From assembly GCA_001792215.1 (NCBI GenBank), contig MGGC01000040.1, positions 3,653 to 61,070 on the forward strand: a stretch of 57,418 bases of DNA. The letters are read 5' to 3'. This DNA is from Candidatus Woesebacteria bacterium RIFCSPHIGHO2_01_FULL_38_10. Lineage in GTDB: Bacteria > Patescibacteriota > Microgenomatia > UBA8517. Below are positions 124 to 50,979 of this stretch, in pieces; within the stretch, counting starts at the first letter, position 1; the number at the start of each line of letters is the position of its first letter. The translations under genes were made by a program, and so were the position numbers. The notes beneath the pieces are model-generated. The model saw only the letters and a list, made by a program, of their open reading frames with translations. It was not told the origin of the DNA and ran no database searches.

Positions 124-337
124 ACAAGTTTCACACTTCCCTTAACAACATCTTCCTCGAAACTTGTTGCGAAGTATTATCTCTAAAAAAAGATGTTATC
201 TTTGCTTCGAGAATAACCACCTCGGATGGTGACCCGAAGGGACTCCTCCGAGATAATGTCAGTTGGCAACATCCACCTCCGAGGTGTCTGCAAAGATAGG
301 CCTGTCTACCACAGGCAGACCTGTCTTTGAAACTTGT
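124..337 (-). mobile_element. MITE-like repeat, composite copy R1 (inverted relative to copy R4)
   Basis: Termini ACAAGTTTC (124..132) and GAAACTTGT (329..337), with an extra internal GAAACTTGT at 159..167. The 50-nt core 217..266 is the reverse complement of 50879..50928 with 3 mismatches. Flanked by the direct repeat CTAGAT (118..123 and 339..344). Confidence 0.75.
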
Positions 338-9649: not shown

Positions 9650-9967
9650 TTATGGTTTTCCTGCAAATGAATCTCCTGGAGTCAAATAAATCACTTTTTC
9701 TAATCTTTCAAAACCCAAATCTTTCGCTTTAGCTTCTACTTCTGCCAGTGATGTTTTCTGAACCAACTCTCTTGAAAGTTTTTTATTTTCACTTGACAAC
9801 CTCTCCTCCTCCTTTTCATACAAAGAAAGGGTTGTCCCTAAGGTTACAGCTTTTATTGTCAAAACTAGCTCAAAAATGATAAACAAACCCAAAAATAGGA
9901 TGCTTATATTTTTTTTGTCTAGGATCTTTTTCTTTTGAGAAATTACCTTTTTACGTCTGTCTCTCAT
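9650..9967 (-). CDS. ftsL: FtsL-like cell-division protein (single TM + coiled coil)
   Basis: 105 aa. TM segment ISILFLGLFIIFELVLTIKAV followed by a heptad-like charged region. Sits at the canonical position between rsmH and ftsI. ATGA overlap with rsmH. Confidence 0.5.
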   Translation of the reverse strand: MRDRRKKVISQKKKILDKKNISILFLGLFIIFELVLTIKAVTLGTTLSLYEKEEERLSSENKKLSRELVQKTSLAEVEAKAKDLGFERLEKVIYLTPGDSFAGKP

Positions 9968-11040
9968 ATTTTTTCCAAAACGCGCATTTTAGCGCTTCTT
10001 GATCTGGGGTTTCTGAACATTTCCTCAGTTGAGGCTAATATTGGTTTTCTGGTAATAATTTTCCCTCCACTTTCTTTAAAAAATTCTTTAACGATTCTAT
10101 CCTCCCCTGAGTGAAAACTAATCACGATAAGGCAACCCCCTTTCCTCAAAACCTTTAAGGCTTTGGGCAAAGCTTCTTTCAAATTTTCAAGTTCACTATT
10201 TACCACAATCCTCAATGCAAGCATGGAAAGTGTAACTGGATGTAATTTTTCTCCCTTCTTGCTTGCGAAAAGTTCCAAAAAATCTGAAACTACCTTAAAT
10301 TTCTTTACCTTTCTTTTCTCAGCAACCATTCGCGCAAGATTCCTTGCTTTACCTTCAGGCAAAACGATCTTAAAAAGTTGAAACAACTTTTTCTGATCTA
10401 GGCTGTTAAGCAAATCGGATGCCCTAATCTTTTGAGTTTTCTTATCCATCCTCATATCAAGCTCATCTTTAGTATTTTTGAATGAAAAACCTCTTGACTC
10501 GGAGGCCAGTTGATGACTGGAAACTCCAAGATCAAAAAGAATTCCGTAAACTTCTCTAAAACCATACTTTTCCAAAATACTATCCAGGTCTTTAAAATTA
10601 CCATGAATAGCCACAAAGCGCAGCCTTGCAAAAAGCGGATAAATCTTATTCGTTCGAGAATGCCTCGCGGCAAGACGCGAGGATGAATGAGCGAACGAAC
10701 TTGCCGAAGGATACTTCGTAGCAGAGCTACGAACCAGTTCATCGTCTGAATCGTTTAAGGTAAGCTCTGGTAAAGACCGAGATACTTTCCTTAACCTCTC
10801 TTCAGCAATCCTCAAAGAATCGCAATCTGTCTCTATTCCTAAAACAAAACCACCTTCTTGGATAATCTTCTCGCTATGCCCACCCAATCCCAAGGTGGCA
10901 TCAATAATCAGGGGGTGTACTTTTAAATGTGCAAATTTCTTTAGCTTAAGCGCTTCAACTACTTCACGAACCATAACAGGATCATGAAGATTTTGACTTC
11001 TCAGTCTGTTTTCCATTTTGATTCTTTTTCTCTTCTTCAA
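9964..11040 (-). CDS. rsmH: 16S rRNA (cytosine1402-N4)-methyltransferase RsmH with a ~50-aa internal insertion
   Basis: Motifs HDPVMVREV, IIDATLGLGGHS, ILFDLGVSSHQL, SFHSGEDRIVK. The track start is TTG at 11040; the ATG at 11016 (MENRLRS) is more likely. Confidence 0.85.
   Translation of the reverse strand: MKKRKRIKMENRLRSQNLHDPVMVREVVEALKLKKFAHLKVHPLIIDATLGLGGHSEKIIQEGGFVLGIETDCDSLRIAEERLRKVSRSLPELTLNDSDDELVRSSATKYPSASSFAHSSSRLAARHSRTNKIYPLFARLRFVAIHGNFKDLDSILEKYGFREVYGILFDLGVSSHQLASESRGFSFKNTKDELDMRMDKKTQKIRASDLLNSLDQKKLFQLFKIVLPEGKARNLARMVAEKRKVKKFKVVSDFLELFASKKGEKLHPVTLSMLALRIVVNSELENLKEALPKALKVLRKGGCLIVISFHSGEDRIVKEFFKESGGKIITRKPILASTEEMFRNPRSRSAKMRVLEKI
10649..10733. repeat. GC-rich nested/double hairpin inside the rsmH reading frame
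   Basis: TTCGTTCG (10649..10656) pairs with CGAACGAA (10692..10699) and encloses CCTCGCG (10663..10669)/CGCGAGG (10676..10682). A second hairpin is TTCGTAGC (10715..10722)/GCTACGAA (10726..10733). Confidence 0.6.
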
Positions 11041-11110: not shown

Positions 11111-11557
11111 CTAATCACCCACCTTCTTTTTCCCAACTGCAATTCTTTCAAGCGCCTCATAAGCTTTTTCTTCAATGGCTTTTTCTAAAGTATCCCATTC
11201 AGTGCTATCCCAAATTTCTACTCTATCTCCTAAACCTACAAAGATAACTTCTGACTTTATGCTCGCATAATTAAGCAATACCTTGGGTATAATAAATCTG
11301 CCCTGCCTGTCCAGTTTTATTTCAAACCCTTGGCCAAAAATAAACCTGTCCAGATCTCTAACCGGCGATATGATTAAGTAAGATGGTCCAGTAAGCCTCT
11401 TTACCAAATTTTGCCAAGCATCTTTTGAAACCAGAACCAAACATTTTTCGTACCATCTTGCAACAATCAACTCATCTCCCAATTCCCGTCTTAACTTTTT
11501 TGGTACAGACACTCTATCTTTATCTGTTAATTTGCTCAAATACTGTCCGATAAGCAC
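11111..11557 (-). CDS. mraZ: Transcriptional regulator MraZ
   Basis: 148 aa. Two SpoVT/AbrB-like halves (DKDRVSVPKKLRREL and LDRQGRFIIPKVLL). First gene of the dcw operon. Confidence 0.9.
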   Translation of the reverse strand: MLIGQYLSKLTDKDRVSVPKKLRRELGDELIVARWYEKCLVLVSKDAWQNLVKRLTGPSYLIISPVRDLDRFIFGQGFEIKLDRQGRFIIPKVLLNYASIKSEVIFVGLGDRVEIWDSTEWDTLEKAIEEKAYEALERIAVGKKKVGD

Positions 11558-50716: not shown

Positions 50717-50762
50717 ATTAAGGAAATCGACATTCTACCCAAATTCTAAAATCTTACCAGTC

Positions 50763-50953
50763 ACAAGTTTCGCAGACAGGCTTGCCTGCGCAAGACAAGC
50801 TTAAACCACCTTCGAGATGTGCGAAGCCAGGTACCATACAGTACTTGGCGAAGTACTCCTCGGAGGTGGATGGATTTACCAACTGACATTATCTCGGAGG
50901 AGTCCCTTCGGGCCACCATCTGAGATGGCTATTAAGGGAAGTGTGAAACTTGT
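50763..50953 (+). mobile_element. MITE-like repeat, 191-nt full-length copy R4
   Basis: Termini ACAAGTTTC (50763..50771) and GAAACTTGT (50945..50953). Flanked by the direct repeat ACCAGT (50756..50761 and 50954..50959). Its internal modules are shared with R1, R2 and R3. Confidence 0.8.
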
Positions 50954-50979
50954 ACCAGTGTCTAATTTAGAATTCTTTT

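Follow-up and report, generated by a model that had tools for sequence, protein, structure and literature searches.

The window analysed here is a stretch of 57,418 nucleotides (nt) from Candidatus Woesebacteria bacterium RIFCSPHIGHO2_01_FULL_38_10, an ultra-small groundwater bacterium of the Candidate Phyla Radiation (CPR), and corresponds to contig C40:3653-61070 of its genome (G000; 41 contigs, 1.02 Mb, 37.7% GC, estimated 93% complete). On its minus strand, at 9964..11040, lies rsmH, the gene for the 16S rRNA m4C1402 methyltransferase, identified by its open reading frame (ORF), its Pfam match, the names of its homologues and the fold predicted by AlphaFold2 (AF2); the ORF itself starts with TTG, and an alternative ATG start is found at 11016. 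The gene belongs to a cluster ordered mraZ (11111..11557)-rsmH-ftsL-ftsI, in which an ftsL-like gene comes after rsmH. Inside rsmH lies a 93-nt segment that is very probably one copy of a dispersed, non-autonomous, hairpin-forming repeat, similar in behaviour to the Rickettsia palindromic elements (RPEs) and translated through by its host gene.

The segment inside rsmH

The copy occupies 10651..10743 on the plus strand, antisense to rsmH, and amounts to 31 codons (DELVRSSATKYPSASSFAHSSSRLAARHSRT). Its limits come from a covariance model of the repeat family (R1), from the alignment of copies and from filled and empty sites in a larger miniature inverted-repeat transposable element (MITE). It is codon-aligned at both ends, encodes the peptide D-E-L-V...H-S-R-T and spans residues 93-123 in the 351-amino-acid (aa) numbering, or 100-130 counted from the TTG start. 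The original prediction had placed an insertion of about 50 extra residues at 10615-10775. The element is real, but the repeat is just 93 nt long and only 31 of the extra residues belong to it; the rest, including VSRSLPELTLNDSD preceding the insert and NKIYPLFAR following it, is part of a loop whose length varies among orthologues. The GC-rich character claimed for the segment is confirmed by 100-nt windows, which give 0.49-0.53 at 10600-10749 against 0.31-0.45 elsewhere in rsmH; the segment as a whole has about 51% GC, compared with 35-38% in its surroundings. Directly to the left of the copy, at 10644..10650 on the plus strand, stands TCTTATT, an instance of the (T/C)TATT motif that recurs in a flank table of 57 copies and at the empty MITE site, and which is either the target or a duplicated sequence. 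In gene orientation this motif supplies AAT AAG (Asn-Lys) directly after the insert, and two genes on contig C27 similarly have AAT AAA after their own inserts. An insert-free rsmH junction would read ..CTTATT joined to GTCTGAATCG, and the tryptic peptide YPSASSFAHSSSR would be expected as a product of the translated insert.

The nested hairpin and the second, 8-bp hairpin that had been reported from this segment are present exactly as written, and their coordinates can be given. Domain 1 (10649..10699, plus strand), evident as an inverted repeat, in the folds and as covariation helices 1 and 2, has an outer stem made of TTCGTTCG (10649-10656) and CGAACGAA (10692-10699). This stem surrounds an internal loop, GAATxCC ... 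GGATGAA, and an inner hairpin a at 10663-10682, also on the plus strand, in which CCTCGCG (10663-10669) and CGCGAGG (10676-10682) enclose gcaaga. Domain 2 contains hairpin b (10715..10733, plus strand), formed by TTCGTAGC (10715-10722) and GCTACGAA (10726-10733) around aga and recognised both as an inverted repeat and through the compensatory variants that other copies carry (TTCGCAGC/GCTGCGAA and CCTCGCTAC/GTAGCGAGG). Folded as DNA, the 102-nt core is more stable than shuffled sequences on either strand (z = -3.8 and -3.6, with 0 of 200 and 1 of 200 shuffles as good), and the 191-nt span of the original prediction has no unusual fold when compared with shuffles (z = -1.8).

To either side of the insert, the host protein is a recognisable RsmH. 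Its match to Pfam Methyltransf_5 (E = 7e-71) is divided in two, with the second part beginning at residue 141 (profile position 70), and HMMER alignments to the RsmH structures 1m6y and 1wg8 in PDB are interrupted at the insert point. Homologues, named RsmH, come from Patescibacteria, Microgenomates and Woesebacteria, and the nearest of them is only 49% identical. An alignment of 16 RsmH sequences is good on both sides of the insert, and its invariant columns are, by definition, kept in the host protein; between the helix ending ..RL.. and F.LVHGNF, orthologues have 0-30 residues, and an additional 31 are present solely in the host protein. The AF2 model (mean predicted local distance difference test score, pLDDT, 82; predicted template-modelling score, pTM, 0.80) puts the insert between helix 66-82 and strand 135-139, with pLDDT falling below 50 at residues 95-124 and exceeding 85 in their surroundings. 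A Foldseek search with this model retrieves 1n2x and 1wg8 at E ~1e-26, with template-modelling (TM) scores of 0.88-0.91 normalised to the target. Orthologue alignment and structure mapping, the checks proposed with the original prediction, thus place the insert in a variable loop that is disordered in the AF2 model, and the RsmH fold is predicted to be intact around it. In the Rossmann-like methyltransferase fold, the site follows the helix after beta2 and precedes strand beta3 (..FVAIHGNF). In the class I methyltransferase topology, helix-to-strand loops face away from the S-adenosylmethionine (SAM) pocket; by this topology, the rsmH insert would be on the face opposite the pocket.

The same loop has changed length elsewhere. 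RsmH orthologues P0005 (L187:520-640) and P0003 (L188:520-600) differ there by about 14 codons, in a manner that resembles a local partial duplication around GGCGAGACAAGCC; a second hairpin element in these two loops was considered and rejected, the extra residues being this apparent duplication. The difference between P0005 and P0003 indicates that the RsmH loop has changed length repeatedly and that more than one mechanism has been at work. A short ..ACP.. motif in the loop is common to many RsmH orthologues and absent from the host RsmH. The insert itself is not an assembly artefact and is fixed in the populations sampled: 14 contigs of several sources encode the identical RsmH protein with the insert, and the same-sequence cluster has four members, all of which contain the insert and are 100% identical over the region.

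The repeat family

Sequences related to the rsmH insert are dispersed through the genome. BLAST finds them at C27:10374-10470 (87% identity), C27:5513-5612 (82%) and C31:8034-8157 (74%). A profile HMM search (nhmmer), followed by one with R1, built from nine copies, yields about 21 copies at E < 1e-4, or about 30 counting fragments, in the 1.02-Mb genome; the R1 match in rsmH, at C40:14296-14397 (window 10644-10745), scores 86.4 bits (E = 2.7e-15). The original prediction would have yielded to an ordinary lineage-specific loop had other genomic copies been lacking or the hairpins not conserved; copies are found, at 74-87% identity, and their hairpins are conserved. Similarity between copies ends abruptly at both ends. 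Family members measure about 93-145 nt and consist of two domains, each arranged around an 'ATACC-stem-loop' hairpin. The 93-nt subfamily is found in three genes (rsmH and the two C27 genes), a 102-nt form in one gene and one spacer (C31:8050 and C38:52360), and a 100-nt form in two copies flanking rplT; about ten copies of a 108-nt 'subfamily A' are nested in a larger mosaic MITE. If the left TATT is counted as target, the inserts are 93 nt long in rsmH and the C27 genes, 102 nt in C31 and 108 nt in subfamily A. We rejected a length divisible by three as a trait of the family: genic copies (93 and 102 nt) and subfamily A (108 nt) have it, and intergenic copies of 100 and 107 nt do not. The two copies around rplT (L20; C38:22178-22597, plus strand) are near-identical, lie at C38:22029-22137 and C38:22594-22702, both on the minus strand, and bracket the gene so closely that the second starts within its last codons.

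The family has a conserved secondary structure. Domain 1 consists of an outer stem around GAATACC, hairpin a and GGATGAA, and domain 2 of an outer stem that varies between copies, and at times includes a further small hairpin, around (G)ATAC(C) and hairpin b. RNAalifold, applied to nine copies, predicts 26 pairs, 12 of which show compensatory changes. In a larger set, in which 58 distinct sequences represent relatives and other phyla as well as this genome, 91.6% of the cells are paired, a percentage somewhat inflated by the fitting of the alignment to the model, compared with 65.1% after shuffling and 41-49% with the partners slid by 1-3 columns. In the same set, 24 of the 26 pairs (11 of 11 in helix 4) have changes on both sides, which none of 500 shuffles achieves. 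The slid-partner control and an independent MAFFT alignment agree with conserved pairing. The element is a short multi-copy repeat with conserved hairpin structure. On the model strand, most of its loops read G(CTTG)C, with CAAG, the inverse, in subfamily A. The hairpin a loop reads ..GATAC-AAG-TATTGG.. in subfamily A (e.g., C16:7195-7309), and the same stem holds ..GATAC-TTG-TATTGG.. in the sister copies C9:5054-5169 and C17:20181-20298; this loop appears to have been flipped with the stem kept, as if by inversion or template switching.

The ends of the element are as constant as its hairpins. On the plus strand of the model, nearly all of the 57 copies in the flank table are preceded by (T/C)TATT and end in T(T/C)ATT, one subfamily having TATA and CATA at the junctions instead; past these motifs, the flanks of different copies are unrelated. 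Terminal inverted repeats (TIRs) are found in no subfamily: the left end, ..TATT followed by CG(A/C).., and the right end, ..GT(T/C)ATT, are not reverse complements. The bases shared by the two junctions number 3-4, are always ATT or TATT (ATA in one subfamily) and are accompanied by no identity beyond them. The window also contains, at 50756..50959 on the plus strand, a copy of the larger mosaic MITE without the core element, whose empty site is GCTATT^AAGG (TATT at 50930-50933). At precisely the position marked ^, about eight other MITE copies hold the core (104 + 4 nt), flanked on each side by TATT, so that the filled/empty pair shows TATT twice and once, respectively. In C16 and C27, BLAST accordingly aligns query positions 175-178 on both sides of the insertion. 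The mosaic MITE family is about 190-200 nt long, has terminal inverted repeats (ACAAGTTTC...GAAACTTGT) and is built of separable hairpin modules in varied combinations, much like a bacterial interspersed mosaic element; further copies lie at C26:21495-21664, C35:11915-12108 and C6:13715-13901. At window 146..210, on the minus strand, a partial copy of the core family retains domain 2 only (nhmmer C40:3798-3862, HMM positions 49-113, E = 6e-13); it sits at this same position within a MITE fragment, the adjoining fragment being C40:3864-3939.

Beyond this genome, R1 has matches in 19 of 41 related genomes from the same family, order and class, where copy numbers range from 0 to 17 and the distribution is patchy. 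A wider scan, with the domain-1 motif GAATACCYCG..CGRGGATGAA and one genome per species, returned at least 120 stretches, of which roughly 80 would be expected by chance on a rough estimate; of 80 loci among the matches listed, 35 also score with R1. The best loci display the full architecture, including the second hairpin and TTTATTC.. / ..TTCATTT termini, features absent from the search pattern, and come from Saccharibacteria, Minisyncoccales, Berkelbacteria, Nitrospira (contigs of 207 and 954 kb), proteobacterial metagenome-assembled genomes (MAGs), a Planctomycetales MAG and Geminisphaera colitermitum TAV2. One 1.2-Mb Saccharibacteria genome has 31 copies, compared with 1-3 in genomes of 3-6 Mb. 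The copies in Nitrospira sp. CG24A and CG24C (L077:4797-4939 and L127:5804-5947) and in G. colitermitum TAV2 (L068:6568-6661) are intergenic, with the same two-domain architecture and termini, and reside in large non-CPR genomes at the higher GC of their hosts (55-59%). Those in Nitrospira adjoin genes for LuxR-type response regulators; no transposase-like ORF recognisable by eye adjoins the Nitrospira or Geminisphaera copies. Viral contigs gave seven pattern matches, only two of which, both weak, resemble domain 1, and thus no evidence of a phage vector.

Copies inside genes

In-frame copies are present in at least six genes of this genome, which encode RsmH, a SAM methyltransferase, a thymidylate-kinase/GT4 fusion, a 23S_rRNA_IVP protein, a Wzy_C protein and an RmlC-like epimerase; an additional partial copy lies in a 272-aa ORF without a Pfam match. 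The Thymidylate_kin domain of the Tmk-GT4 fusion is broken into two stretches by its copy, and the domain of the four-helix 23S_rRNA_IVP protein is also in two stretches; there, the element is oriented the other way and read in a different frame. The ORF of the Wzy_C/TPR membrane protein (C37:31949-34222) also has a short run of N (8 X in translation), which is an assembly gap or a masked stretch. In relatives, copies stand in frame in PMT-type glycosyltransferases, a class A penicillin-binding protein and a Y1_Tnp-like gene. In a class-level relative (L059:1240-2022; G039:C6), the element is in frame within a Y1 transposase gene similar to those of the tyrosine transposases associated with repetitive extragenic palindromic (REP) sequences (RAYTs), where it separates the ..LFQ.TYKA.L strand from the helix with the catalytic-Tyr motif (..LLHLSRYIHLNP).

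The peptides encoded by these copies recur, as ..YPS..SS.AH.SSR.AAR[YH]SR in the antisense frame and ..QTSR....[MV]KRSS[ED]QT.. in the sense frame. The original prediction described the rsmH peptide as Ser/Arg/Ala-rich, which it is, and as what one gets from translating a palindrome. The second part is not the whole account, because independent insertions, namely, those in rsmH, in the two C27 genes and in the class-level relative L059, share one frame and encode similar peptides. Each of the 25 full copies keeps at least one open frame, and 37 frames are open where 14.8 would be expected, the copies not being independent of one another. Long ORFs take up about 89% of the genome, but of 30 copies just 7 or so lie inside genes; this low share points to selection against most genic insertions, which were presumably lost.

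We posit that a copy of the element inserted into the rsmH coding sequence at a loop already variable among orthologues, and that the gene would have stayed intact, with the element read as a 31-residue, Ser/Ala/Arg-rich, disordered surface loop. Since the length of the insert is a multiple of three and the frame used contains no stop, the gene should be intact and the element translated, and RsmH with the insert is probably still active. A structured repeat or mobile insertion tolerated by the reading frame, as the original prediction had it, is what the genomic copies, the in-frame genic copies and the compensatory changes all point to.

The copy could instead have been exapted for a local nucleic-acid function, such as pausing, mRNA stability in the mraZ-rsmH-ftsL-ftsI operon or an antisense RNA, or the whole family could be a protein-binding hairpin module. 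Compensatory change keeps the structure even in genic copies; conservation of the unpaired GAATACC and GGATGAA, and of the loop sequence, extends across phyla, which hints at protein recognition; and the insert is fixed in all 14 contigs with the RsmH protein. We nevertheless consider exaptation unlikely. The copies are found in unrelated genes and in spacers, in both orientations to transcription, and a single cis function does not fit sites so unrelated and so oriented; moreover, the relatives have anywhere from 0 to 31 copies per genome, a patchiness expected of a selfish repeat.

We give still less credence to the possibility that the element, although kept in the DNA, is removed or skipped before the protein is made, through intron-like excision, RNA processing or translational bypass, so that RsmH would not contain the 31 residues. 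The segment is strongly structured on both strands, and the G(CTTG)C loops frequent in the family would form CUUG tetraloops, a stable type of RNA loop, in a transcript; in rsmH, however, the CUUG-type strand is the antisense one, and genic copies occur in both orientations. Rfam 15, intron models included, gives no match at E <= 1 to four copy-bearing loci, and 93 nt is far under the size of a self-splicing intron. The genic copies are all divisible by three and open in the host frame, with the frame reused in independent insertions, an argument tempered by the fact that the scoring of genic copies would have missed insertions out of frame. A divisible length and an open frame would be unneeded if the segment were removed, and removal is therefore disfavoured. 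Last, an ordinary lineage-specific expansion of the RsmH loop by slippage or duplication, GC-rich and palindromic by chance, would suit a site where orthologues vary by 0-30 residues and where P0005 and P0003 differ by an apparent local partial duplication, but it is highly improbable and was rejected, as the 93 nt can be aligned over their full length to copies in other genes and spacers (74-87% identity, with abrupt ends) and reach 86 bits with R1, unless those other genomic copies are assembly artefacts.

Presumed mobility of the element and comparison with known systems

We infer that the element is or was mobile. As its mobiliser, a recombinase specific for hairpins or single strands is our leading guess, ahead of a DDE transposase, since the element has no TIR, two subterminal hairpins in the same orientation and a constant A/T junction motif. 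The unpaired motifs conserved in the family, and its occurrence in distant phyla, suggest a dedicated recognition protein. An IS608-like 'guide' pairing, between the GAATA 5' of the hairpins and the TATT junctions, was considered and dropped, because the T/C at the right end covaries with the A/G of GAAC(A/G)AACT in the outer stem of domain 2. The replication-strand bias to be expected of IS200/IS605-type elements is not clearly present, with 11 copies on the same and 7 on the opposite side with respect to the sign of local GC skew.

The genome encodes three intact RAYT-like Y1 proteins of 225 aa, at C8:6495-7169 (minus strand), C38:1506-2186 (minus) and C27:20130-20861 (plus), whose best NCBIfam match, NF047646, is below its cut-off. 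On both sides of the C8 and C38 genes are short GC-rich hairpins in inverted orientation, in a REPtron-like layout, e.g., CCAGGTGTC-ttggctt-GACACCTGG upstream and AGGTGTC-aagctaa-GACACCT downstream; BLAST detects no further copies of these hairpins in the genome. Across the 41 relatives, the element and Y1_Tnp occur together in 18 genomes, the element alone in 1, Y1_Tnp alone in 13 and neither in 9 (Fisher p = 0.011, with phylogeny and genome size not factored in).

Several results weigh against our reading of the rsmH segment as a copy of a mobile repeat. No autonomous partner or transposase was found for the element. The RAYT-like Y1 proteins are a lead only and were set aside as mobiliser: the hairpins flanking their genes are unrelated to the element and inverted, and their similarity to the element and to the MITE is at chance level. 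Four relatives with a classical IS200 TnpA (G004, G005, G013 and G015) have no R1 match, and of their Y1_Tnp matches resembling classical IS200 TnpA, two are intact and two have stop codons. The bases shared by the junctions are too short and too constant to distinguish a target-site duplication from an end that mimics the target, and the pairing percentage of the 58-sequence set is, as noted, somewhat inflated. For rsmH in particular, the insert peptide (residues 88-128) found nothing besides the protein itself in a collection of 5.8 billion proteins, from which it follows that this subfamily of the repeat is rare. Likewise, no empty rsmH site was found, the nearest homologue being the one with 49% identity and the same-species cluster consisting entirely of proteins with the insert. 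As there is no insert-free orthologous rsmH site, the insertion is deduced from membership in the repeat family.

A broader scenario, to which we give tentative weight, is that of a cross-phylum family moved as single-stranded DNA by a hairpin-specific enzyme, of the HUH/Y1 type or other, which may have bloomed in CPR bacteria and survived there in frame, in tolerant protein loops. Such a family would be that of the 93-145-nt elements with two 'ATACC-hairpin' modules, CTTG-type loops, (T/C)TATT...T(T/C)ATT ends and no inverted repeats. Equally tentative is the accompanying view of the CPR bloom, according to which CPR genomes offer almost no intergenic space and the element is rare in large genomes such as those of Nitrospira (1-3 copies).

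Among described systems, the closest in behaviour are the RPEs (RPE-1 to RPE-10; Ogata et al. 2000). As summarised in PMC10969869, these are short (about 100-150 bp), palindromic, gene-less elements of a small genome, present in many copies both between genes and in frame within unrelated housekeeping genes, each family having its recurring peptide and inserting in ways compatible with the protein fold. The element described here is likewise an in-frame, palindromic, multi-copy repeat with a recurring peptide, which leaves both halves of host domains intact. It differs in its Patescibacteria/CPR host, in its two same-orientation 'ATACC-hairpin' modules and conserved (T/C)TATT / T(T/C)ATT ends, and in spanning phyla at low copy number. 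The resemblance to RPEs would thus be one of behaviour, not of family membership.

Other hairpin elements share part of these features. Like REP sequences and the REPINs mobilised with RAYTs, the element is a hairpin-forming, non-autonomous repeat in a genome with three RAYT-like proteins, and 18 of 19 element-bearing relatives also have a Y1_Tnp gene. Unlike theirs, its hairpins are direct, not inverted; it does not flank the RAYT-like genes; 13 genomes have Y1 and no element; and REPs are by definition extragenic. A REP-type GTAG tag was sought and rejected as not conserved, with GTAG after hairpin b in some subfamilies and GAAG, CCAG or GAGC in others. Elements of the IS608 type have no TIR, a hairpin near each end in the same orientation, a short fixed left-end sequence and no clear target duplication. 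The present element, like these and the miniature IS200/IS605 elements known as PATEs (palindrome-associated transposable elements), has no TIR, subterminal direct hairpins and a constant left-end sequence. In contrast to them, no cognate full-length insertion sequence with the same ends was found in this genome (tnpB was not searched for), relatives with classical TnpA do not have the element, and there is no clear orientation bias with GC skew. Classical bacterial MITEs (ERIC, BOX, Correia and QMITE) occasionally fuse in frame with host ORFs (PMC10969869). The element is similarly small, gene-less, multi-copy and at times in frame, and its core is nested in a TIR-bearing mosaic MITE, whereas the core itself has no TIR and its junction bases are constant rather than a variable duplication. 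Literature searches found no such elements in CPR bacteria, and none of the ten best-ranked papers of a combined search linked RPEs with CPR; the rsmH insert is a copy of an apparently undescribed RPE-like hairpin repeat.

Odd insertions are a known feature of the proteins of CPR bacteria, or Patescibacteria. The one in RsmH can be assigned to a particular repeat family and not to the slow drift of a loop, and an insert of high GC and low complexity in a CPR housekeeping gene is not necessarily an error or the scar of a pseudogene. The element offers a second and independent system, besides Rickettsia, in which selfish hairpin DNA is accommodated in the essential genes of reduced genomes, a possible source of new loops. 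If the cross-phylum scenario is true, essential CPR proteins would regularly gain new surface loops from the element.

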